Assembly: GCA_000165345.1 (NCBI GenBank)
Contig: CM000434.1
Span: 1 to 64,000 of the forward strand
DNA length: 64,000 nt
Direction: 5' to 3'
The translations under genes were made by a program, and so were the position numbers. Shown piece after piece: positions 1,873 to 50,244 of the stretch (its first letter is position 1; the number at the start of each line of letters is the position of its first letter). The notes beneath the pieces are model-generated. The model was not told where the DNA came from and made no database searches. It saw only the letters and a list, made by a program, of their open reading frames with translations.

Positions 1873-4800
1873 ATAATTATTAGGCTGAATTATGAGAATA
1901 TCAACCAATTTTAAAATTATTTTGAATAGGCCGTGCAAAGCTCAACTATACTATTTGATTTAGATATTTCCCGAAAAAAAATACTTAGAAAAACTTAAAT
2001 AACTTAAATTTATTGGCTATACTAATCTTTGAAGAAATCAAATTAACATTTAATTGGCAATATTTTACTGGGCTAATTTTGAATTAAAATTAAATTAATC
2101 ATGATTAGTTACAAAACTGTATTTAAACATGTCTAATATTTAAGTAATATTAAAACAATAATAAAAATAATTTGGAAATAGAAGGTTTCAGAATTTATTC
2201 AATACTAAATTAAGTTTATACTTATTTAATTTGATTTTATATTTGATATTATTAATATAAAATCAAAGAAACTTTAATACCTACATGTACAAATTATTTT
2301 TGGAATTTGTTAATTTTCAACTCATCAAAGTCTAACATTTAATATTTCTAAGTTGTAAGCTTTAAAGAAATTATTATTCATTAGTTTCAAATTGTTTAAG
2401 AAATATTCGATTTTAGTTGTATAGTCAACAAAATAAATATTAGATTTTAATCTGTTTGAAACAAATATAAAACCAGGCTTTAACCATTTAGTCACTTAAT
2501 GATGAGTTTATTTTTTAGTAATAGGTTTTTAATATAAAAACATGCCTTGTAACTACAAAGAAAATTTTTAAAATAATTTACAATATAACAATTTACTATC
2601 GAACTTAGAAAAATACAATCACTTATAATTTCTTCTTGATATTTAATTTATTGCCTTCTTAATTCATTATTTATTATTAAATAGATCAAAATGTGATTTG
2701 CTTCATTTCATTTCTAATTTGTAAAAATCAGCTTTAGAATATCATGAAAAATATAAAATACAAGAAAAAACATTTTCTACTCTTAATTTTTGTTTTAATG
2801 GTCCAAATTACCATAATCTAAATTAAAGTGAAAAAATTTATATAGACAAAAAAATAAAAGTATTGAATAGCAAAATATTCAATCCAATAATTTTAATAAA
2901 TTCTTTTAAAAACATAACAACTAAATATTATTAAGAGAATTAGTTGAAACATAATATATATGTTGTTTTTGTTGAATAAACAAATTACAAATTATATCTT
3001 TAGAATTATAAATTAATTTATTTGAAATTATAATTTAATTTTGAAAAAAAAGTATATGAATTTATAATTTCTAAGTATGAACTTGTCTTACAATATTTCA
3101 ATGAAAATAAACGCATGAGACAAATTTAATACCAAACCAATCATCTTTAAATACTATTTACTATTGCTCAAAAAGTAATCAAAATTGTCTTTGAATAAAG
3201 TAACTCCATTTATAACAATTAAACAAGATCATTCAATGATGAAACAAATTATTGGAAATATAATCTTTAAATGAATTTACTCTATAAATTTATGCTTGAA
3301 ACTTTTTGTATAGAATATTTTTATAATAAATAAGAATTCATTTTGAAAAAAATAGAATTTTTTGTTTGAATAATAATTATTAATATTAATTCGAGTTAGT
3401 ATATTAGATCGCTTTAAATTATTAACTTTATTGTTTAACAAAAAATCTGAAAGTTTTAATTAAATTATTTTGTAGAACTTTAAATTCCCATGCAATATTG
3501 TACGGATTGTGGAATATATTCAATTATTTTTTCTTTTATCCAAATATTACAAAAAAAAAAAAGCTGATTTTTAGTCATTTTCTTAAATTTTACTTTTTAG
3601 AGAGAAATCTTAAATAAATAAAATGCATTTTGTAACTTATAGAAATAATTGTATTTATTATTCTACGAGGGTAAATAACTTTTAAAAAAAAATCATTTAA
3701 TAAATGTATGTTGTAGAAATACTGATTCCTGTAATTGTGAATTGAATTATATATTTACAAATAGTTTTTGAATTATTTGCTGAACTTCTAAAATGTATAA
3801 GTGAAAATTTTTTTTAAAGAATTCTCAAAATTACAAAATATTTAATAACTTTAAGATTTGATAACTATTATTAAAGAGTCAAATAGTATAGTATCAATTT
3901 AAGTACTTCATATAATAATTGCATGATATTGTTATATTTATATCAATTACAAGTTTTTTTTATTCGATACACCTAATTTTTTCTATTTATTAGAATTTTA
4001 GAGTACAAGACAACTTATAGTAAAATTATGCAGATATTTTACAAATAAACAATTGAAACCTAGATTATGTGAATAAAATTGATTAATTAGCAAAAAAAAG
4101 GTTATTCAAGAATAATTTAATTTTTCAAATTAATATTTAACTATTTTTTATATGAATTCTTAAGTTAGGTTTATATCTAGTTGAAATTGAAGTTGTTATT
4201 AATGATACATGAATTATTGATCTTAGATTTGTGCAATGTCTAAATAATGAATATTCACATTATCATGTGATAAACAAAGTTGATTAAAAAAGTTATTATC
4301 TAATTTACCATCTTTATTATTCACTTACTTAAAGAAAATCTTTGCTTTTGATTAATATATCTAAAGTAATAGACTAGACTCGTGCAAAGAAAAATCAATC
4401 AGCCTATTTATACAAAAAGAGTTTCTAGACTGATAAAAATTATTTTAAATTAAATAGAAGGAATATTTATTATGATTAGCTTATAAATAATACAATTGAA
4501 AGATGTTTAAGTAGATAAATCCTGACAAAAAAAAAGAATTCTTATTCAAAAAAAAAGTCAAAAATCTGTTTATTAGAAATACTATTATAAAGAAAAGAAT
4601 TGTTGAAAATTCTTAATACTTTTGAAAATCATTAACATGCATATGCTGATAATTAATTTAATGTTAAAATACATATATTTTAATATTAAATTAATATTGA
4701 TTTTTGTATCTCGCAAAAGTTCAGAATTAAAGTTTGTTCAATTGTGTAATTACTTTAATTCCGTAAAAAGTATGTACAATATACAATTATCTGTATTAAT

Positions 4801-5417
4801 AATTATCAGGTAAGAATTTCAAATTTTTTAAAAAATTTATAACTAAATTTGTAACAAAATAGTAGACCGGAATCATTTAGAAAATTCAAATAAGCACTCT
4901 AAATTAAACAAAGCTAAATAAATTCACTTGGGATTTACTCAATATCTAACAAAAAAGCAGTGCTAATTTTTTCAACGAACTTATTCAAAATATTGGTTTA
5001 ACTTTTATTCACTTTCTACAAAGGCATTTGCAGAATAGAATTTGCTTCGAGTTTGAGAATGAAATTAACATCTTTAAAGTCAGTCCAAACAAGATTCTGT
5101 TAAAAAACCCATTCTTGCAGCAAGAAATAAAGAATACTTAAAATTCAAGTCCAACTGAACATTCACAAACTCATTTCTTTATTTAACCGAACAACTTGTG
5201 AAAAAAATAGCAACCAGCTTTCAAATTTAACTGAATTTTTAAACGTATATTGTTTTAAATTATTGTGATAATTTAAAACAATTTTGATGAGCTTTCATGA
5301 GAAAATTTTTCAAAATTGATTCTCCTTCATTTTAACTTGATTAATATCCAGCTATCGAGAAATACAACACATACAGATAAAATTTAGAACTTGATCTTAC
5401 AGAGTTAAAGATCACTT

Positions 5418-6053
5418 TTAATCACAATATTTGCAATGTTGTCTTTTTCCAGCTCCTGGTTTTATAAAATGTTGGGCACTTGGGTTAGTAGGACAATTTG
5501 TAGAGAGACATCCCACAGGTTTAACAAGTGGACGACAATTAGGGTTATAACAAGGAGGTATTTTCCCATCTCCCGCAGAAGAACGATAACAACTTCGAGG
5601 CATACTAGTACTAAGCGGTTTAATACCACGAAAACCCGTTGAATTCCCACCAGTTTGTCCGGAAGATGAACCTGTAAATTGCGTACTAGAACTTGAGGAA
5701 GTCCCAATAGCTCTACTTAATAGCCGAGCAAGACCTAGTGAGGAGCCAATAGGAATAGGTCCTTTTTGCGGATTTTGAGGACCTTGTTTGAATGGAACAT
5801 GTTTCTGTTGTGGACCAGAAGGACCAGATACAGTATTACGTAATTGAATAGCTGTTTTAAGAATCCCTCGACCTCCAGTTCCAGCTAGGGGACGATAGAA
5901 ACCAGACTTCAATTTTATAAAGGAATACTTGGAGGCAAAATCTGGATTAATGGATGTATTTAAAAAATCATTAAAGAAAACCTGATCTGATAAAAGCAAT
6001 AAGAAATTGAATAGAACAGTGAAAAACGAAAACAACTTCAAATAATTAAACAT
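5418..6053 (-). CDS. Secreted Gly/Ser/Pro-rich protein (211 aa) with a Cys-rich C-terminal tail; hypothetical
   Basis: ATG verified at 6053. N-terminal signal peptide MFNYLKLFSFFTVLFNFLLLLS. Middle region is G/S/P/Q-rich (GSSSGQTGGNSTGFRG..., GPSGPQQ). C-terminus carries 8 Cys (PCYNPNCRPL...GCLSTNCPTNP...HCKYCD). The ORF is conspicuously GC-richer than its flanks. An E2F-like site lies 80 bp upstream. Confidence 0.6.
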   Translation of the reverse strand: MFNYLKLFSFFTVLFNFLLLLSDQVFFNDFLNTSINPDFASKYSFIKLKSGFYRPLAGTGGRGILKTAIQLRNTVSGPSGPQQKHVPFKQGPQNPQKGPIPIGSSLGLARLLSRAIGTSSSSSTQFTGSSSGQTGGNSTGFRGIKPLSTSMPRSCYRSSAGDGKIPPCYNPNCRPLVKPVGCLSTNCPTNPSAQHFIKPGAGKRQHCKYCD

Positions 6054-6128
6054 TCTTAATAATTGTAAACTTCTTTTATAAGTGGAAGAAAAGATATTGC
6101 CGGGGAGAAACAGTTAGAGGGGAAACGC

Positions 6129-6140
6129 TTTGGCGCCATA
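6129..6140. promoter_or_regulatory. TTTGGCGCCATA, E2F-like palindromic element
   Basis: About 80 bp upstream of the minus-strand gene starting at 6053. Confidence 0.5.
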
Positions 6141-8696
6141 TTACGTATCTTATCAAATTAAAGAGTGAAAAAATTTGATTGAAAACAGAACTCAATTTTT
6201 CTTAATATTTGCGTTCATCTTTCCTATGATATTGGAATTGCTTGCTTTGTGTTAATTTATGTCAAAACTTCATGAATGTTATATTTTTTTTCTAAAGAAA
6301 AAATGCTGTAATTAACTACCATTCGAATCATTTTTTTTTTAAATAAGTTTAAGTTGATGAAGAAAAATGATTTCACTAAGTGTTAAATGATTGTTACATG
6401 AAATGTTTGCTTATAATTTTTCTCATTACTTCAGAAACTAATAACCATATGTTTTTATCATAATGAGATGATATTTCTGTGAAAATTAATTTATTTTGAC
6501 TTAATTTATAATGGTTGATAAAATTTCTAATCACAAAATATTTGTACACTAACTTGCTATTTAGCCTATTATTTTTGTAACTTAATATTTCAAAATATTA
6601 TGTGGAAGAGATCGATCAACTTTGTTAATAATATATTGATAAATTGTAGCAAGTTCAATAATAAGTATTATAGCTGAAATAAGGAACGATATTCTGAGAA
6701 GATAATATTATTTATTAGATAATTATTAAATAGGTTGAAATTATTATGCTTAAATCTTGTTGTAATAATAAATTAAAGTGCTTTTTCTTATAATTATTAA
6801 AAAGGCTTGTTTAAATTACAAATTTTTTTTCGAAAAGCTAAGAATTTGTTTCCCAAAAATATCTAAATACAGAAAATATTAAATATTTTGAATTAAAAAA
6901 ATGGTTAATGATTTAAAATATAAATTATCTTTAAGGAGTCTATATTGAATAATAATGATTTAATTTATTAATATAAATTAAGATATTCATCAATTTGATC
7001 CGAAATCACAATTAAAAAAAAAGTGAAAATTTGGCAATATTTATTTTAATACAGGATTTTTTTTTCGAATTACAAAAATTACATTAAATATTTAGTACTT
7101 TTCTCATAAAGCAAATTAAATTATTTTTAATAGTTTATGTTTCTTTATCAAAATGATTAAATAGTAATTTAATTTGTTATTAAATAATCATTACATTTAC
7201 AAGTTTGAATTCATTTATTGTAATAAAGATTTATATCTATATTTTTACGTGTATAATAACTATTTTAAACATGTAAATTAGAATTAGTTAAATTTAAATG
7301 TAAAATATTAAACGAAAAAAAATATATCAAATTGATCCTTAATAAATCTAATAAATCGAGTTCAACAGATTTTGTTGAAAAAAGTGTGAGAACTATACTA
7401 TTTTCTTAACCTCTGTTTGCTGTGACATAATTCCTTTTTTTGAAATAAATTTTTTTAAAAAAAATATTATTCAACAAGAGATGAAACAAATTTTTCCATA
7501 TTGTTTTTGAATTAAATTACTTTTTGTGAATTTCAGTGAAGATTTTGTCTAATATGTTTGAGCATTTCAACAATGGGAAGTTTGTCAGTAAGACAACTTA
7601 TTCTTTTAATTAGATATTATTATTTGCAAATTTATGGATTGATACTAATCATCTAGCTACTTTAAGGCTTATAGTTAATATTTATATTATCTTTTGATTT
7701 ATTCAATTATTAAATCTTTCTTGACACTAATTTATTCTATTTATAAATATATTTATTGATATTGATGTAAATTTTTCATGAAAAAACAGAATAAAAGACA
7801 AATTCGTAAAGTATAAGATTACAAAATTTTCTATTCACTTATAGTTTTATTGAATTGTAAAATAAGTTATGAATAAATAGTTTGGAAGTTTTTTTACTCC
7901 TAAAGAAATGATGTTCAATTTTAATTATATATAATATTTAAAAGATAAATAGCTTCTTAATAGATTTTTTTAATGAGCTTAAAATTAAATGGTATTTTTA
8001 ATCATACATTATTCTCTAACATACTTCTAATAAATTCAATTGAACAATATATCCCAAAATAATTAATTAAATATATTTTTAATCCAAATAAAATTCATTA
8101 TTTATTTTGAAATAAATTTTTGAATTATATGAAGAAACAGTTATTAATTTACGAGCAAATATAATTAATTATTAATATTTGGATGGATATTTAATATATC
8201 AAATAATCATCTCTACCATACGTAAGATATGGCTTTCAAAGAAAAAAAAATATGTAAATAAATTTTCTTTGAAAATCAAGTATTTGTAATTCTAAGTTCA
8301 TCTTAAAATTGGATATTTAACTAAAATTGAAGAAAGTTGAATTTAAATTTTTTTTTTTTGCCTACATTATTAATTCAACATCAATAATAGATAAGATAAA
8401 TTCACTTAATATAATTATTTTTATCATAGGATATATTATTAATATTAAAATTGATCTTTTTTAATAAATATACTTTTTTTAGACAAAGGATAGTGATATT
8501 CAAACTGGTGACTATATTTGTTTAACAAACTTTAGTATTAATAAATCTTTATAAAAGAAATACAAATTTAATTTAGAGAAATATTAAAAATATTTAGCTC
8601 ATATGATTTAAATTTCAAAATGAAAAAACCAAAATAAATTTACAATTTAATATCACGGAAGGGGGGGAGAGAGAAAAAAAAAGTCATGAACAAAAT

Positions 8697-42053: not shown

Positions 42054-42327
42054 AATTATGGCAAGCCCGGACTAAGTACATCTGAAAATTCAAATTTTCC
42101 CAAAAAAGGAAAAGAATTTCAGGAGATTAAAGGAAGCAAGGATTGATATTAATGGATACAATATATGCAAACTCACTAATCCATTTCTAATTCTTTCTTT
42201 TCCAAAATAAGTTCAGATCAACCAGAACAAATTATTATATTTTATTAATTCTAATTTATGTGTGGAAATAAAACAAGAAATTAAGGTATAAGAGGCAGGA
42301 AAGATTAATTTGTGGACGGTAAAACAT

Positions 42328-44400
42328 ATGTCGGATATTTCGTGTATATTATATTCTGGAATTTATGAGGTACTGGTAGAATACTTAGATTATGAAGATG
42401 TTTATGAGTTAGCACTTTTAAGTGTGGAGTGGGGTAATTACTTAGGAGGTACTTTTATAAGATACTGGAAAAGAGCTTCAACTCATATTTTTGGACTCAG
42501 ATTTGACTTAATTCGAGTTTTGACTGATAAAATGTTTATGGATACCAAAGACAAAGAGTTTGAGAATATCATTCATTCACGAAATATAAAAAGTTGGTTT
42601 GAATATTTCGAGTTTTTGACTACTTCTGAGCTTAGAACATTATTAATTAATCAAAAAAAAATGAATAAAGTTCTACATGATCTGCTAGTTAAGCTAAAGG
42701 TTGAGTTAAATCCTACTAATTCTTATTTTTCAATCCAGAACTCATCCAATTTCGAAGGAAATATTGGCTTTAACAAATTCATTCAAGATTATACTAGGAA
42801 TATTTCTGAAGCTTTGACATATCCTTTCAGGCCTATAAATAAGCAAAATTCTAAAGATCATATTAATAGTAAGGATACAAATTCTACAGAGTTCACAAGT
42901 TTTAATAGAATTGAGTTAGATTTCGGAGGATTAGGCAAGGGGTATTTATGGGATATGGAAATTACTTCAATAACATCTCAAAATATCATCTTAAAATCAG
43001 AATTTCAGATAGAAGATATACCTTATTGGGATATAGGCCAATTAATGATAGAATATATTGCAGTTTGGGGAATAATCAATGAAGATGATCATTTATTATT
43101 ATATCATCATAAAAATCCATTTCATAAAACTGATGATAGAATTCACCAAAATTCCAATAATTATCAGACTTTAATACTTGAACATGGTACCAAGATTTCA
43201 AATCTAAATGGAATTAATTACTTCCTATCCAGTTTGAGTAGTTTTGCTGGAATTGAAATGAGTATTAATGAACAATTGTCTAGAATTACTATTTATATTA
43301 CTTTACAAGTAGTGTTCATCTTAGAAAATCTCAAGAATCACTTTTCATCAAATACAAAAAGTTTCTTATATTCAAATAAGCAAACAAAGAGTATTCAGGA
43401 CTCGGAGAGATGTAATATTATTGATAATTTTCAATTCAAAGAAAACATTCATACATGTAGTAATACTGTTGAATATATAGAAGAAAATTATATGCATTTA
43501 GAAGATTATCATTTATCAACAGAAAAATATAATTCAAAAGAAGATTCAGACTTTAATTTGCTTGATATTGAGTGTGAATATGATAATATATCAACTCAAG
43601 AATCATTGTTTCTCTCTGAAGATGAATTTGATCCTTTCGAAGGCAATCTTACATTATTACCATCATCATCAGTATCATCCTATAAAGATCATCTTGAATC
43701 AAATCCATCAATAGAGAAACAAACAAAATATTGGGTACCTTCATTTCTAAGTTTTAAACCAAAATTTATGTATTCGATACCTTTTAAATGCAACGAAAAT
43801 AAATATTCTAGATCATATTATAATATTGAGCTACAATTAATGGATACAAGAGCAAGTATTCCTTTATATTTATATGGAGATTTGGAACCATTTATTGAAA
43901 GTAAAAGCATGGACTTTGTTGAATTAAGAGTATATTTTGGACGAAATTATCCAAATTCTAGTTTTATCAAAACAAATTGTTTATATCAAGCAGGAATTTC
44001 TGTTATAGACAAAACTAATGGCGAAATAGTATTTAGTTTAGTTTTCCCAAAATCCAAATCATTTTATGATAGAAGAGTAGTTTCTTCAAAATCTAAGCGA
44101 TTATTGAAATTATGTTCATATTCTAGAGTATATAGTACTCAAGTTCCAGTTGTGGATCCTCCTTCACAATTAACTAATATGCCAGAATCAGTATTTAGTA
44201 AGCTTGAAATACTTATCCATCCTCAGAAGAGTACTGTAGGTAAAGTTTCAGAACTTAGTATATCTTTGAATGTTAAAGAATGTTTAGCTTTATTTCCTAT
44301 TAAAAAGTTTAAAAGGTTTCTCAGATTACAAGGATTTCAATCTCAGGATCAGTATAAAAGAAAGATTAATTCTCCAATAAAAAATATTCACAAGTACTAA
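42328..44400 (+). CDS. Hypothetical protein, about 690 aa, with a possible N-terminal F-box-like helix-turn (ISCILYSGIYEVLVEYLDYEDVYELALLSVEW)
   Basis: The track start at 42310 is a TTG. The first ATG at 42328 gives MSDISCILY. The rest is Asn/Ser/Ile-rich with no recognisable domain. The F-box call is pattern-level only. Confidence 0.45.
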   Translation: MSDISCILYSGIYEVLVEYLDYEDVYELALLSVEWGNYLGGTFIRYWKRASTHIFGLRFDLIRVLTDKMFMDTKDKEFENIIHSRNIKSWFEYFEFLTTSELRTLLINQKKMNKVLHDLLVKLKVELNPTNSYFSIQNSSNFEGNIGFNKFIQDYTRNISEALTYPFRPINKQNSKDHINSKDTNSTEFTSFNRIELDFGGLGKGYLWDMEITSITSQNIILKSEFQIEDIPYWDIGQLMIEYIAVWGIINEDDHLLLYHHKNPFHKTDDRIHQNSNNYQTLILEHGTKISNLNGINYFLSSLSSFAGIEMSINEQLSRITIYITLQVVFILENLKNHFSSNTKSFLYSNKQTKSIQDSERCNIIDNFQFKENIHTCSNTVEYIEENYMHLEDYHLSTEKYNSKEDSDFNLLDIECEYDNISTQESLFLSEDEFDPFEGNLTLLPSSSVSSYKDHLESNPSIEKQTKYWVPSFLSFKPKFMYSIPFKCNENKYSRSYYNIELQLMDTRASIPLYLYGDLEPFIESKSMDFVELRVYFGRNYPNSSFIKTNCLYQAGISVIDKTNGEIVFSLVFPKSKSFYDRRVVSSKSKRLLKLCSYSRVYSTQVPVVDPPSQLTNMPESVFSKLEILIHPQKSTVGKVSELSISLNVKECLALFPIKKFKRFLRLQGFQSQDQYKRKINSPIKNIHKY

Positions 44401-44451: not shown

Positions 44452-44476
44452 ATATATATATATATATATATATATA
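44452..44476. repeat. (AT)12 dinucleotide microsatellite
   Basis: Direct reading, in the 3' intergenic region between two convergent genes. Confidence 0.9.
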
Positions 44477-44542: not shown

Positions 44543-45486
44543 TCAAGTTTCATTTGGCTTTTTTTTAGTGTTTAATTCATTAATAAATTCATCTACTTCT
44601 CTAAAAGCTGGTTCGTTGAATTTATCGTCATCGTTATTATTAATAAAAGGTTCAGGAATGTAATTATTTGGGAATTTATGAATACAGTTATTAAGAAATA
44701 ATCCTCCACAATTGAATGCAAGGATAATGTAAATACTCAATATAAACGTTCCTGCTAAAAATAACATTATAATTCTCTTAATAGGAAGCCATTCAGCACT
44801 TTGTTGTAATCTATAAGACTGTCTTCTGAATGTATTGGATTCCATTGTCAAGTTTTTTGCTTGAGAAACCAGTAAATCTAACTTTTCACCTCTTTCCAAT
44901 AGAATATCTATATTTTCAATCAGAACATTTTGAATTGTGGAAATTTGGTTTGCTAACATATCATATTCTGTATTTTCTGGACAATTCCAATAAATCTAAG
45001 TTATATTTAAATAATAATTTGTAATTTCATATATTATTAATGTTACTTACCATTCTTTCTTTGATTATTGGAGCAACAACCCCATTTAATATTAAAGTTA
45101 TTGGATTTGTAAGCATTTCAACAAACGGTAAAGTCTTTGATCTAATATCTAATAAATATTCATAAGGTATAGTTAGACCAAAAGATCTATCTGTCATTGC
45201 CATATATATAACTCCTGGCTCATAAATTAAGAAGTGAAAGCAATATATATCATATGTATAAGATTGTTTATTTAAGCTTTTATTTATTTTTTTCAAGAGA
45301 AATCTTGCAATTGATGGAAAATTTCCTGTGTTTTCTGTATATTCTGCCAATACCACATTATCTGAATACGTAATTAATTTGAATTAATTATATTTTTAAA
45401 AAAATAATAAATTTAGTTCAAAATTGACTTTCAAGCTTATTTGACCTTAACGTACCTTTAGCTACAAGACTGTAAATAATTGACAT
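44543..45486 (-). CDS. Longin-type R-SNARE (VAMP7/Sec22-like), 3 exons: 45486..45456, 45361..45051, 44995..44543 (about 264 aa)
   Basis: Exon 1 encodes MSIIYSLVAK(g) followed by a GTACGT donor, matching the VAMP7 start MAILFAVVARG. Exon 2 is the longin domain (DNVVLAEYTENTGNFPSIARFLLKKI...YCFHFLIYEPGVIYMAMTD...KERM) ending at a GTAAGT donor. The 55-nt intron ends in TTAG. Exon 3 (IYWNCPENTEYDMLANQISTIQNVLIENIDILLERGEKLDLLVSQAKNLTMESNTFRRQ) is an R-SNARE heptad motif with the conserved Arg, then a TM helix. Both track ORFs (a GTG start and the internal Met) are pieces of this gene. Confidence 0.75.
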
Positions 45487-46051
45487 TTTTTACATAATAA
45501 ACAAAATGAGAAAAAAACTAATTTATATATTCAAAAGGTTCAAAATTTTTTTTCAATATATTTCATTATTAAATTGTCAAATTAATTAAATATTAAATCG
45601 AGTGATGGCTCGTCAGCGTTGAATTTTTTTTTTTTTTTAATTAAAATATAATAAATCAATGCATAAATAAAATGAGTAATAATTATTTAATTAATTTAAT
45701 TTTGTTTTAATTAGTAATCAAAACAAGTTTATTAAATATTTTCAAACATAATTCAAAGTAAAAAGGTAGCACTGCATTTAATATAAAAGATATATTTAAT
45801 TTATTAGGTACTTGGCATTATTCAAGCCTAATTCATTGAATTGATGCCATGTACAGTAAGGACAAATAGTCAATGCTTTAAACTGAAATAGCTACAAAAG
45901 AAATATTTACATGATATATTTTTTGCGATAATTTAACACAATTTTTTCTTGTTTGAATTGTGAAATAGTTTAGATTTAACACTTTGTCATATGGGTCATT
46001 TCCACACAGTGCCCCGCCTAAACACTTGAGAAATAATAAATATGGAGGAAA

Positions 46052-47224
46052 TTAAAATTCGAATTCGCCAATTAAAGTATCAAAGGGGATTTCTTGATTT
46101 GCAATTTGAGCGATTCCATTTCTCAGTTTGACTCTCCATTTTCCTTTTTGGTTTTTTTTTCTGGTATATGGTCTGATAACTTTTTCAAAATGTCCAATAA
46201 TGACGTCACTGCATTCAGGTTCTTCATCGTCTAAGTCAGATACATTCTCAAGATCTGATCCAGGGTCAGATAAAATTTCTTCATCAAAATGATCATTGTT
46301 TCCACTGATCTGACCATTTGTTGTACTATTTTGGTTGTTTGACTTTGATTTATTTTGTTCCTGAAAATTATCTGTTAGGTTATCTTTAGTACTTTCGCTT
46401 TCGCTTGGTGCAACTACATCCCAAGATGCGTCTCCAAACTCATCATCCTCGAATTCATCATTATTATTATTTTCATTTCCATTAGAGTTTTGACATTTTT
46501 CAGTATTGAATTGTTCACAAGTTGTATTTTGTTTTTCTTCTAAAAAAGCATTTCTTTCTTTACCTTCTTCTTCTTCCTTTTCTATGTCTTTTTCATCTTC
46601 ATTTCCAACATATTTTGAATCTGAATCATCTAACTTTGATTTCTTAGAAACCATCTTACAAAAATCATATTCAATATTTAACTCGTTAACATTTCTCATT
46701 TCTTTAGAAGATATTATTGGAGTTGGAATACTTTGAAGTGATCCCTCACTAAATCTTTTATTATTAATTCGATTGTCACAAACTATGATTTCATTACTGT
46801 TAAACTCGCTAATACTATCATTATGATGATTATTAATATTGCCATAATTAATATTATTACTAATTTCACTAATATCGGATTTTTTCGGAACTGATTCAAT
46901 TTTAACAGGTAAAACCCCATCCAATTTAGGAGCAATAACTTCCATCTCTGTCGGTACCCATTCTTGATTACGATCAGATTTCTCATCTTTTGTTACACCC
47001 AAACACAAATCATTTAACTTTGAAATCCACCTGAGTTTTAATTGTTCAAGCATCTCAGGGGTTTGCAATCCTCTTGATTTCTCAATTGTGCCTATTTAAT
47101 AGAAAAAAAAAAAAATTGCGAATTATTAATATAATTACATTATTCAAAATAAAATCAATTCAGTTTATATCAACTTACGGTCAATTATCTTTAAATATAT
47201 ATTTAAAGAGTCTACGGAACTCAT
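46052..47224 (-). CDS. Transcription factor IIA large subunit (TFIIA-L/TOA1-like), 2 exons: 47224..47179 and 47091..46052 (about 361 aa)
   Basis: The C-terminus RPYTRKKNQKGKWRVKLRNGIAQIANQEIPFDTLIGEFEF matches the TFIIA-L beta-barrel (KDKWKFHLKDGIMNLNGRDYIF...W). A long acidic middle. The track start is a TTG. Reading upstream gives an in-frame AATAG acceptor at 47093-47092 and a 46-nt exon 1 (MSSVDSLNIYLKIID) ending in a GTAAGT donor at 47178. The spliced N-terminus IYLKIIDRTIEKSRGLQTPEMLEQLKLRWISKL parallels human LYRSVIEDVINDVRD...VLMELKTLWENKL. Confidence 0.6.
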
Positions 47225-47490: not shown

Positions 47491-47500
47491 TTTGGCGCCA
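47491..47500. promoter_or_regulatory. TTTGGCGCCAAAA palindrome about 270 bp upstream of TFIIA-L exon 1
   Basis: Direct reading. Confidence 0.5.
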
Positions 47501-48414
47501 AAACAAACTCCATTAAATTCTATAAATTAATCACATTTAAAAACTAGAGAAAATATTGAATTTGAAGTAAAATCAGCCTAAACTGCTTTGTAGAAAATTT
47601 TATAGGAAATAAAGATGATATGAAGGTTGCTATTATTATTACTATTATAATCATTGCTACTGTTTCTAAAAAAAAATTTTAAAAAACATCTTTTCTTCAA
47701 TTTTACTAAACTTGTATCATTTCTTAATCTTAAACTTCATTGAATTATTTATTATTCAAATTCTTATCATCAAATTTGAGTTTATAAATTCATTATTTAG
47801 AAATTACTTCTAAAAAACAAGTTCCCAAAATTTGCACTTTTGCACTTTTTTAAATTAGCCCCCACTGCCCCCCACTATAATTGACTGGTAGGCTTACCAC
47901 ACAAATAATTTGGCATGCAATATTAAATATTTATAATAGTTAAACTTAGAATATGAAAATATAACCATTTCTGAGAATTTTATAAATATCATTAATAGAA
48001 AGAAAATTTTGAATTATTTTAATAAATTCAAGTATTATTTAAATAATAAAAAAACATACATTTACCTTATTTTATATTAAATTTAAGTTCAGTTGAGTTA
48101 ATTGGAATTGAAATCATTAATTAATATCAAGCAATAAAAAATAATAAGAGCTCATCTTTATTTCTTGGAGCTAATACTATAAATACTGAATATTAAAATT
48201 ATTAAATAGGTATTTTGTTTTACATTAAAGTCTGATAATATATATAAATATTATATTATAAATATATTTATATTATATATAATATATTCCCAGTAGATTC
48301 TAAAATTCAATTAATAAAGATAAACATTTCCAACCTTAATTTAAAACCAACCCCTTTATTAATATAAATATTATTATGTAAACACATCATTTATATTAAT
48401 TGAAATCAATAAAA

Positions 48415-50244
48415 ATGAACTTTGAAAAATCTTCGAACTCATTAGAAACTATCAACTACAATACTGAAGAAATCAATAATTCCAATTCATATAGTCAAAG
48501 TTGTAATACTATAGCAGAAGAACAGTTGGCAATTTTAGATTCAAATCTCTCAAAATATTCGGATATATTTAAAATCCAATCAAAAAGTGTTTCTCAATCA
48601 GAAAGTGAACATGAAGATATCTTCCAAAAATTCACAAATGATGAAAAAAATAAAAAGTTTCTTGAAATTAAAGTTTGGGAAGAAACTAGAATTGAAAAAT
48701 ACCAACATTTTATTAGTGCTATTGATCCAATTTTTACTGAACTTTCAAATTCTATCTCTCAAGCAATGCAAACTAATAAAGATTTGGCTACAATTCTACA
48801 ACAAAAAACCAAGTACTGGAATAGTTACTCAAAGAATCTGGAACTAATTTCTCAATATGGATCAAAAAATGGACATAGTAATACTCATATTCATAGTTCA
48901 AGTAATCCATGTCCATCTTGCTCTTCTTCTGCAAAGTCTTGCTCTTGCTCGTGTCCATTAGTTACTTTTTCATCATCAAATAGCTTCCTAATACAATTAA
49001 AATCAGGAGAACTAAAGAACCAATATAATCAAGATGAAACTAATAATGAGAGTTTACATGAAATTATTATGAACCAGGAACTTAAAGATTCGAATAATAA
49101 TAATAATAATAATAATAATAGTAATAATAATGAGTATTCAATTTCAAGTAATTTACTGAGTTCTATTTCAAGTCAGAAAGTCTGGCCAAATTTACTTGTA
49201 AACTTTGGAAGATACGAATCAACTTTTCTTAAAAAACTTTGTCAAAGTATTGAAACTGATGTAGTAAATGGACATCTTTCATGGATATCTAAAAGATATC
49301 TAAATAATGCTCAATCATACTTAAAGGCATTACGTATTGCCAGAAAAGAATTTGAAACATTTATTAATAATGCACAACAATCTTGGAATAAATATGATGA
49401 CGCATTTAAAAAATCACAAAGACTTAGTTTAGATGTAAATTATTCAATGAAAAATAGTAAACCATGTGATACTTGGTATTTTGATCAAATCTATAGACAT
49501 AATATTAATAAGTTTATTCAAGCCCAAACAAAATTTTTTGAAACAATACTATTAACTATTGATAATCTGATGGAGCTTGAAAATTGGAGAGCAACTTCTG
49601 TTAAACTTACATTTAATTACTTCTTGGTTAAACAAAATGAACTTTTTGAATTTCTTCAAAAACTTGGAAACTCTATGATTGATTATATCAATGATCAAAA
49701 CAAACAAAACTCTTTATTTCAAGACCACTATGCAAACTTTGATATTATTACTTCAATTCCTGGTCTAAGACCACCCCCAATACCTATTTCTAATGAAGCA
49801 AATTTCTCAAAAATTTCTCAATCGCTCTCAAAATGTCCTATTTTACAACAAATTTCAACTCTAATGAATTATAATAATCTTCCAAAATCTTCACTAATTA
49901 TTTATCACGGGCATGTTGAAATTTTTAAAAGAAAGATCTTCCTTGGGCAATGGCAATCTGCTTATATAATACTCACAAAAGATAAATTCCTTTATCTTCT
50001 TAATCCAAGAGATGATATTGAAATGGAGGAGCTTCTAAAGCATGATGAAAAACCTATCTGGTCTTTTTTTATTGGATCTCAAGATATATCTATAGAACTT
50101 AATGAAAAGAGAGGAAAAAGATGCCTTAGTATTAGATTTAAAAAACAGAAATTCTTCACCAAGAAAATGACCATTAGATGTTCAAATGAAGAAGAGTGTA
50201 GTAAATGGATGAATTATCTTAATTCGGTAATCCCTCCATATTAA
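48415..50244 (+). CDS. Hypothetical protein with a C-terminal PH-like domain and an internal poly-Asn tract, about 609 aa
   Basis: The track start at 48400 is a TTG. The first ATG at 48415 gives MNFEKSS. The C-terminus IIYHGHVEIFKRKIFLGQWQSAYIILTKDKFLYLLNP...RCLSIRFKKQKFFTKKMTIRCSNEEECSKWMNYLNSV has the PH-fold pattern, including a terminal amphipathic helix with the conserved Trp. Confidence 0.55.
   Translation: MNFEKSSNSLETINYNTEEINNSNSYSQSCNTIAEEQLAILDSNLSKYSDIFKIQSKSVSQSESEHEDIFQKFTNDEKNKKFLEIKVWEETRIEKYQHFISAIDPIFTELSNSISQAMQTNKDLATILQQKTKYWNSYSKNLELISQYGSKNGHSNTHIHSSSNPCPSCSSSAKSCSCSCPLVTFSSSNSFLIQLKSGELKNQYNQDETNNESLHEIIMNQELKDSNNNNNNNNNSNNNEYSISSNLLSSISSQKVWPNLLVNFGRYESTFLKKLCQSIETDVVNGHLSWISKRYLNNAQSYLKALRIARKEFETFINNAQQSWNKYDDAFKKSQRLSLDVNYSMKNSKPCDTWYFDQIYRHNINKFIQAQTKFFETILLTIDNLMELENWRATSVKLTFNYFLVKQNELFEFLQKLGNSMIDYINDQNKQNSLFQDHYANFDIITSIPGLRPPPIPISNEANFSKISQSLSKCPILQQISTLMNYNNLPKSSLIIYHGHVEIFKRKIFLGQWQSAYIILTKDKFLYLLNPRDDIEMEELLKHDEKPIWSFFIGSQDISIELNEKRGKRCLSIRFKKQKFFTKKMTIRCSNEEECSKWMNYLNSVIPPY
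49093..49131. repeat. (AAT)n trinucleotide microsatellite, about 12 units with one AGT interruption, encoding poly-Asn
   Basis: Direct reading. Confidence 0.85.

Follow-up and report, generated by a model that had tools for sequence, protein, structure and literature searches.

Short first exons in tandem genes for a predicted VAMP7-type SNARE and TFIIA large subunit of Cryptosporidium parvum, and the luminal tail of the SNARE

The first 64,000 nt of Cryptosporidium parvum contig CM000434.1 (GCA_000165345.1, positions 1-64,000 of the forward strand, G+C 29%; hereafter the window) almost certainly hold, between positions 44543 and 47224, two ordinary genes arranged in tandem on the minus strand. 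One codes for a VAMP7-type SNARE and its neighbour for the large subunit of transcription factor IIA (TFIIA-L). Each gene opens with a very short first exon, the SNARE carries an extension beyond its transmembrane (TM) helix, and both genes are already present in public annotation. Their placement on chromosome 6 comes from locus tags such as CPHLJ_6g180.

Gene structure

The preliminary description of this DNA, made from the sequence alone, held that the mechanical open reading frame (ORF) track splits the SNARE gene in two, with one of the ORFs starting from GTG, and begins TFIIA-L at a TTG codon; the three ORFs are exactly as it described (Table 1). The exons that it had placed upstream, one of 31 nt with a GTACGT donor and a 94-nt intron for the SNARE and one of 46 nt with GTAAGT and 87 nt for TFIIA-L, were reproduced to the base by scripted assembly. 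Splicing yields a coding sequence of 795 nt for a SNARE of 264 amino acids and one of 1086 nt for a TFIIA-L of 361 amino acids. The GT-AG boundaries of all three introns restore the reading frame, read-through of any of these introns meets in-frame stops, and in-frame stops are also present upstream of both ATG codons. First exons as short as these escape an ORF finder of the prokaryotic kind, and Cryptosporidium genes are systematically cut short in ORF tracks made in the bacterial style.

Both gene models put forward in the preliminary description are right: their products equal the curated C. parvum models residue for residue, and all splice sites are backed by comparison with related species. 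The 264-amino-acid SNARE is an exact match to QOY40897.1 (CPATCC_002512), WKS78128.1, WRK32616.1 and KAL5367892.1, and the 361-amino-acid TFIIA-L to QOY40898.1 (CPATCC_002513), WKS78129.1, WRK32617.1 and KAL5367893.1, which are named 'Transcription factor IIA beta-barrel'. These records come from four C. parvum assemblies, QOY40897.1 and QOY40898.1 belonging to the IOWA-ATCC re-annotation, and the gene models were therefore already known. Since both short exons are part of the GenBank models, the word 'unannotated' that had been applied to them holds for the mechanical ORF track alone. The IOWA-ATCC annotation was curated manually gene by gene and its introns are stated to be 100% supported by RNA-seq (PMC8744675). 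The exact recovery from raw sequence of two eukaryotic models with first exons of 31 and 46 nt makes a clean positive control.

Table 1. Positions in the window of the mechanical ORFs, the exons and introns of the two genes, and segments of the SNARE.
Feature	Positions	Strand	Description
Mechanical ORF	44543-44959	minus	ATG start, 138 amino acids
Mechanical ORF	45027-45356	minus	GTG start, 109 amino acids
Mechanical ORF	46052-47068	minus	TTG start, 338 amino acids
SNARE exon 1	45486-45456	minus	31 nt; MSIIYSLVAK and first base of codon 11; longin beta-strand 1
SNARE intron 1	45455-45362	minus	94 nt; GTACGT...CAG; phase 1
SNARE exon 2	45361-45051	minus	311 nt; remainder of the longin domain
SNARE intron 2	45050-44996	minus	55 nt; GTAAGT...TAG; phase 0
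SNARE exon 3	44995-44543	minus	453 nt including stop (44543-44545); R-SNARE motif, TM helix and luminal tail
SNARE TM helix	44714-44773	minus	Residues 189-208, IIMLFLAGTFILSIYIILAF
SNARE luminal region after the TM helix	44546-44713	minus	Residues 209-264; Cys-loop and extension
VAMP7 Cys-loop of the SNARE	residues 209-221	minus	NCGGLFLNNCIHK; conserved
Cryptosporidium-specific extension of the SNARE	44546-44674	minus	Residues 222-264
A8 homopolymer	44559-44566	minus	Within the last SNARE codons
TFIIA-L exon 1	47224-47179	minus	46 nt; MSSVDSLNIYLKIID and first base of an Arg codon; most of predicted helix 1
TFIIA-L intron	47178-47092	minus	87 nt; GTAAGT...TAG; phase 1
TFIIA-L exon 2	47091-46052	minus	1040 nt including stop; helix 2, long low-complexity acidic middle, C-terminal beta-domain

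Conservation of the splice sites and earlier gene models

Splice sites were assessed by comparison with syntenic loci fetched from C. ubiquitum, C. felis, C. ryanae, C. serpentis, C. tyzzeri, C. canis and a Cryptosporidium from a Logan assembly, the C. serpentis locus being usable for TFIIA-L only. The order of genes (PH-domain gene, TFIIA-L, SNARE and a convergent large ORF) is kept across the loci, and the position and phase of all three introns are the same between species. All seven species whose DNA could be used have SNARE exon 1, in the form of five peptide variants of M[SP][IL]IYSL[VI][AS][KR], and the G/GT after it always falls at the identical phase-1 position. TFIIA-L exon 1 is found in eight species, directly followed in each by GTAAGT; the Arg codon split by the intron is C/GN in most species and A/GA in C. 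ryanae and C. serpentis. Third codon positions account for 96 of the 154 pairwise differences in the SNARE mini-exon and for 147 of 213 in that of TFIIA-L, and synonymous codon changes outnumber non-synonymous ones in both. Six or seven other species keep both mini-exons as peptides and differ mainly at third positions, so these exons are not chance readings of the DNA.

The introns have changed faster than the coding sequence. Their lengths range between species from 69 to 135 nt (SNARE intron 1), 55 to 77 nt (SNARE intron 2) and 53 to 140 nt (TFIIA-L intron), a variation that does not keep the frame. Leaving aside C. tyzzeri, which is nearly identical, the identity between species is 50-73% for the SNARE introns and 71-82% for the coding sequence; for intron 1 alone it is 50-62%, set against 72-82%.

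Among C. parvum models only those of the 2004 Iowa II annotation differ from the present ones. Its TFIIA-L (XP_625357.1, 333 amino acids) starts at Met29 and lacks exon 1; its SNARE (XP_001388294.1, 255 amino acids) already has exon 1 but a wrong donor for intron 2, which is taken to begin at a GT at 45077. It is very improbable that this older SNARE structure is real or a significant isoform. The structure has been deposited three times (XP_001388294.1, EAZ51205.1 and CAD98619.1), the 45077 junction recurs in C. hominis CUV06450.1, and its use keeps the reading frame while removing 27 nt (VAPIIKERM). The donor at 45077 is, however, the non-consensus GTTGCT, whereas the GTAAGT at 45050 is invariant in seven species and is used in the four newer C. 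parvum assemblies, in the C. tyzzeri and C. meleagridis models and in most of those of C. hominis. The nine residues lost with the 45077 donor are moreover conserved as protein in all species (V-A/S-P-I/M-I/L-x-E-R/K-M/A) and align within the longin-SNARE linker of VAMP7. The models with the other donor, that is the older Iowa II ones and the single C. hominis one, are a point against the gene structure of Table 1, as is the indirect nature of its junction support, made up of curated annotation and comparative conservation.

Several public models at both loci appear wrong and could be corrected. On the SNARE side, those of C. parvum Iowa II and C. hominis CUV06450 lack VAPIIKERM, exons 1-2 of the N-terminus are missing from those of C. 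ubiquitum and C. canis, and that of C. felis skips 22 amino acids at the start of exon 3. Exon 1 is absent from the TFIIA-L models of Iowa II, C. ubiquitum, chipmunk genotype I, C. ryanae, C. xiaoi and C. canis, and the C. ubiquitum model has an N-terminus translated from the intron. The missing exon is nevertheless in the DNA of C. ubiquitum, C. ryanae and C. canis, the species whose locus was read.

A VAMP7-type SNARE

The spliced SNARE matches the Pfam families Longin (PF13774, 46.6 bits for a cut-off of 26.2) and Synaptobrevin (PF00957, 75.6 bits for a cut-off of 26.4). Alignment to VAMP7 and Sec22, a check proposed in the preliminary description, identifies human VAMP7 (4b93, residues 1-178) as its best relative in the PDB with an E value of 1.8e-18, that of Sec22b being 2.7e-09. 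Since the VAMP7 alignment starts at residue 1 (MSIIYSLVAKD against MAILFAVVARG), with exon 1 facing human residues 2-11, the 31-nt exon restores the N-terminus of the family, as had been claimed. The AlphaFold2 (AF2) model of the SNARE has a mean predicted local distance difference test score (pLDDT) of 71. It gives the longin domain the layout beta-beta-alpha-beta-beta-beta-alpha (pLDDT 83-89), with beta-strand 1 at residues 3-10 (pLDDT ~86), and a helix that runs continuously from residue 125 to 209.

R149, the zero-layer arginine of the R-SNARE motif, does not vary among 13 sequences and faces the Arg of 'QRGERL' in VAMP7. The hydrophobic residues 189-208 line up with the TM segments found in 132 members of the family. 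C210, G212 and C218 of the loop that follows are invariant too. A 'curled', probably disulfide-bonded C-terminus with the signature CGG...C is described as a pan-eukaryotic hallmark of VAMP7 (bioRxiv 10.64898/2026.03.24.713902), and VAMP7A and a myzozoan VAMP7B have been described as paralogues (bioRxiv 10.1101/2022.12.12.520010). By its Pfam domains, its alignment to VAMP7 and its CGG...C loop the protein is a VAMP7-subfamily longin R-SNARE. Its chain consists of a presumably cytosolic longin domain, an R-SNARE motif with the zero-layer Arg, one C-terminal TM helix, the Cys-loop and the extension.

VAMP7/TI-VAMP, as represented by the human protein of 4b93 and by the 221-amino-acid 'vesicle-associated membrane protein, putative' of Toxoplasma, likewise has a longin domain, then an R-SNARE motif and, at the C-terminus, one TM helix. 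The C. parvum SNARE also has in common with VAMP7 the zero-layer Arg and the luminal CGG...C loop, and differs from it in carrying about 43 extra luminal residues after that loop. No paper on the C. parvum gene, whose putative tag is cgd6_190, was found in the literature searched on Cryptosporidium SNARE, longin and synaptobrevin proteins.

Profile search found no SNARE orthologs in the gastric clade (C. muris, C. andersoni and C. serpentis). At the C. serpentis locus (4878-6226) the 1.35 kb from TFIIA-L downstream to the contig end hold no SNARE coding sequence, while the C. parvum SNARE gene starts 565 nt downstream of TFIIA-L. This gastric species has either a far longer intergenic spacer or a break of synteny at the SNARE gene.

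The luminal tail of the SNARE

An atypical luminal extension of about 60 amino acids had been attributed to the SNARE. The length is nearly right, as 56 residues (209-264) follow the TM helix, yet about 13 of them form the general VAMP7 Cys-loop and 43 (222-264) the true extension, whose composition includes 10 Asp/Glu, 5 Lys/Arg and 9 Asn. The accompanying statement that VAMPs normally have few luminal residues agrees with the family median and needs qualification for a minority of members. When 1.84 billion cluster representatives were searched exhaustively with HMMER, 132 VAMP7-family members with an aligned TM helix were obtained, in which the region after this helix has a median length of 12 residues; it reaches at least 30 residues in 19 members and at least 50 in 12 (~9%), one of the latter being the C. 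felis ortholog. With 12 of 132 members having such tails, the Cryptosporidium tail is therefore uncommon but not unprecedented.

Most of the long tails in the family are rich in Ser, Thr and Pro, and metagenomic protist VAMP7 homologs have Ser/Thr/Pro-rich (mucin-like) tails of 55-130 amino acids after the TM helix. These data suggest that luminal extensions were gained repeatedly and independently in the VAMP7 family. Compared to the 50-130-amino-acid Ser/Thr/Pro-rich tails of protist homologs, the Cryptosporidium tail is acidic and Asn-rich, is not mucin-like and has a short helix-like block that is conserved. Other single-TM SNAREs also project beyond the membrane: myobrevin has about 22 luminal residues, and plant and fungal Sec20 have more than 100 together with a K/HDEL signal, whereas the Cryptosporidium tail has no signal of the K/HDEL type. 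A long luminal tail is thus a recurrent variation among SNAREs, of which the Cryptosporidium one is a mild lineage-specific variant.

The preliminary description asked whether the tail is conserved in other Cryptosporidium species. Seven reconstructed orthologs all have a post-TM region in the same frame, with a length of 42-66 amino acids. Species from C. parvum through C. canis have Y(I/V)xEP(F/Y)I and V(D/E)EFIxEL as common blocks, the second of which C. felis retains as VDDFIDEL; in C. ryanae and C. xiaoi the tail is shorter and divergent. Indels in the tail between species are in-frame only (multiples of three). The proportion of non-synonymous differences (pN) in the tail is 0.17-0.25 between species pairs for a saturated proportion of synonymous ones (pS) of 0.69-1.1, and the ratio of the corresponding rates (dN/dS) between C. 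parvum and C. ubiquitum is 0.10. This constraint resembles that of the TM helix and is weaker than in the longin or SNARE domains. These comparisons of coding sequence show that the luminal tail is real and that purifying selection acts on it. The outgroup orthologs end 2-6 residues past the Cys-loop, just after CGGxTFxxC, namely in Toxoplasma (221 amino acids), the gregarine Ancora (221 amino acids) and a gregarine-like Logan protein (226 amino acids). A hidden third intron that would remove the tail was also considered and is rejected because the frame of the tail and its conservation as protein hold in seven species.

The last codons of the gene behave differently among close relatives. In the window a run of eight A (A8) leads to the SNARE end ...NTKKKPNET*. 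The run has seven A (A7) in C. tyzzeri, in C. hominis and in a Logan contig (ERR14760746) matching the window at 3216 of 3223 nt (99.8%). In the A7 frame the protein terminates with ...NTKKSQMKLENIQKDLFER*, with a longer end in C. hominis, so that the last seven residues (KKKPNET) are replaced by an end of 17-24 residues (KKSQMKLENIQKDLFER...). The A8 run is probably real in the C. parvum lineage because it is common to at least five C. parvum records. The constrained part of the tail stops at ...FINELNT.

This variation bears on a further explanation, a real possibility although a somewhat doubtful one, according to which the extension has no function and is a former 3' untranslated region, read through neutrally and merely tolerated. 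The extreme C-terminus is clearly unconstrained, the A8/A7 difference altering the last 7-24 residues among C. parvum, the near-identical Logan isolate, C. tyzzeri and C. hominis, and the tails of C. ryanae and C. xiaoi are largely unalignable. Tails also seem to arise easily, as the unrelated Ser/Thr/Pro-rich ones of other protist VAMP7 proteins indicate. Searched alone against Pfam the C. parvum tail has no hit, and that of the Logan ortholog gives only a sub-threshold match to SecD-TM1 (E value 0.015) that is not credible. Neutral read-through does not, however, account well for residues 222-257, where pN/pS is ~0.2-0.3 and dN/dS between C. parvum and C. ubiquitum is 0.08, a value similar to that of the TM helix; nor for the two blocks kept across species from C. 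parvum through to C. canis, the second of them in C. felis too, and the restriction of every indel to a multiple of three. The AF2 model has residues 221-244 disordered (pLDDT <50), which speaks for the neutral explanation, and 244-257 as a helix of low confidence (pLDDT ~50-54), a point against the functional reading.

The extension is an acidic, Asn-rich and probably disordered linker whose end is the conserved block (F/L/I)(R/K)(E/Q/H)V(D/E)EFI(N/S)EL. By the standard topology of R-SNAREs it would be luminal, and extracellular after fusion with the plasma membrane. Because the tail is under constraint, we think that its likeliest role would be that of a lineage-specific handle for luminal interaction or sorting. 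In a classical tail-anchored protein the TM helix lies within about 30 residues of the C-terminus, a distance exceeded by the 56 post-TM residues of C. parvum and the 42-66 of the other species. With 56 partly acidic luminal residues the SNARE falls outside the classical short-tail definition and may need a different route of insertion. A fuller proposal, which we regard as rather unlikely, would make the linker and the V-D-E-F-I-x-E-L helix a constrained Cryptosporidium-specific module, acting as a handle for sorting or cargo, exposed as a surface epitope after fusion and keeping the protein off the short-tail GET route. No description of the luminal extension was found in the searchable literature. 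The conserved lineage-specific tail is the one mildly unusual feature of this locus, and a modest curiosity.

The large subunit of TFIIA

The 361-amino-acid product is accepted as the large subunit of TFIIA, by its predicted fold and more weakly by its sequence, because matches of its orthologs in Pfam and the PDB, the layout of the AF2 model and Foldseek agree. Seven of 11 orthologs match PF03153 at E values of at most 1, the best with 8.3e-06 and the best score being 26.5 bits, and a profile of the orthologs finds only TFIIA chains in the PDB (1nvp_C and 5fur_C, E values 0.12-0.23). The AF2 model has helices at residues 3-20 and 27-46 (pLDDT 67-81), a disordered middle and strands at residues 312-321, 333-345 and 348-360. 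Foldseek places TFIIA chains in all of the first 22 ranks of its PDB matches, and the C-terminal domains of large subunits among them reach TM-scores of 0.72-0.82 (1ytf_C 0.82, with a root mean square deviation of 1.8 A; 1nvp_C 0.79; 1nh2_C 0.72).

Several results tell against this assignment. Searched at full length, the C. parvum protein matches no Pfam family at E values up to 1 and, with phmmer, nothing in the PDB. The profile check proposed in the preliminary description thus succeeds only in part: the C-terminal fragment does match PF03153 (25.5 bits, E value 1.6e-05), below the gathering score of 36.2 bits, while the full-length product has no match. The mean pLDDT of the AF2 model is 46.7, a low overall confidence. 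The N-terminus has no HMMER match in Pfam, and none in the PDB at E values up to 10. An hhalign comparison with the N-termini of the human and yeast proteins, both verified against PDB chains, gave a score of 17.4 in the expected register (P 0.005), a value reached by two of 300 column shuffles; a control with reversed columns scored 22.1, and because this is higher than the true alignment the match is not counted as evidence.

These weaknesses invite the question whether the gene codes for some other acidic nuclear protein, which is nonetheless a highly unlikely proposition. Older ortholog records carry the name 'DNA-directed RNA polymerase II largest subunit', the scores of orthologs and fragment stay under the PF03153 gathering score, the profile reaches the PDB chains only at the E values given above, and homology of the N-terminus to TFIIA is not demonstrable. 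Nevertheless, TFIIA is the sole family that appears in every test (Pfam, PDB profile search and Foldseek), the architecture is the one expected of TFIIA-L, with two helices right at the N-terminus, then an acidic stretch and, at the very C-terminus, three strands, and nothing in the protein resembles Rpb1. Since neither sequence nor fold backs it, the polymerase name appears to be a propagated misannotation.

It had also been claimed that the 46-nt exon restores the conserved N-terminus of the TFIIA-L family. This cannot be demonstrated by sequence and is only plausible, in contrast to the SNARE. The best statement, drawn from the AF2 model, is that exon 1 encodes most of predicted helix 1 and that without it half of the N-terminal helical hairpin would be lost. 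The two N-terminal helices, the first mostly from the 46-nt exon, may make up a four-helix bundle together with TFIIA-gamma, whose gene is not in the window. After the disordered acidic middle, the three-strand beta-domain would complete the beta-barrel that contacts TBP.

Human GTF2A1 and yeast TOA1 (1nvp, 1ytf, 1nh2 and 5iy6) have the same tripartite layout of two N-terminal helices, a middle that is acidic and little conserved, and a terminal beta-domain. The C. parvum protein differs from them in being very divergent and in having a loop between helices 1 and 2 that is about five residues shorter. The conserved residues Y10, R16, W37 and K40-L41 face human Y14, R26, W46 and K49-L50 in the hhalign alignment, the one outscored by its reversed control.

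Flanking genes and other features of the window

The two genes are flanked by plus-strand genes that are syntenic in every Cryptosporidium locus fetched. The one at 42310-44400 is an ORF of 696 amino acids whose orthologs have no Pfam hit on record, and the one at 48400-50244 codes for a protein of 614 amino acids with a PH domain in its orthologs. The SNARE gene and the 696-amino-acid ORF converge, with 143 nt between their 3' ends. A (TA)n microsatellite of ~25 nt at ~44452-44476 lies in this gap and is much shorter in C. tyzzeri.

The palindrome TTGGCGCCAA, of E2F type and presumably the known E2F-like promoter motif of Cryptosporidium, occurs nine times in the window with at most one mismatch, compared to 0.46 occurrences expected by shuffling. 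The sites are at 47492-47501 and at 6130, 10161, 11931, 17417, 24211, 25883, 57285 and 62553. An exact copy is located between the divergent TFIIA-L and PH-domain genes, in the intergenic region common to both, 268 nt upstream of the TFIIA-L ATG.

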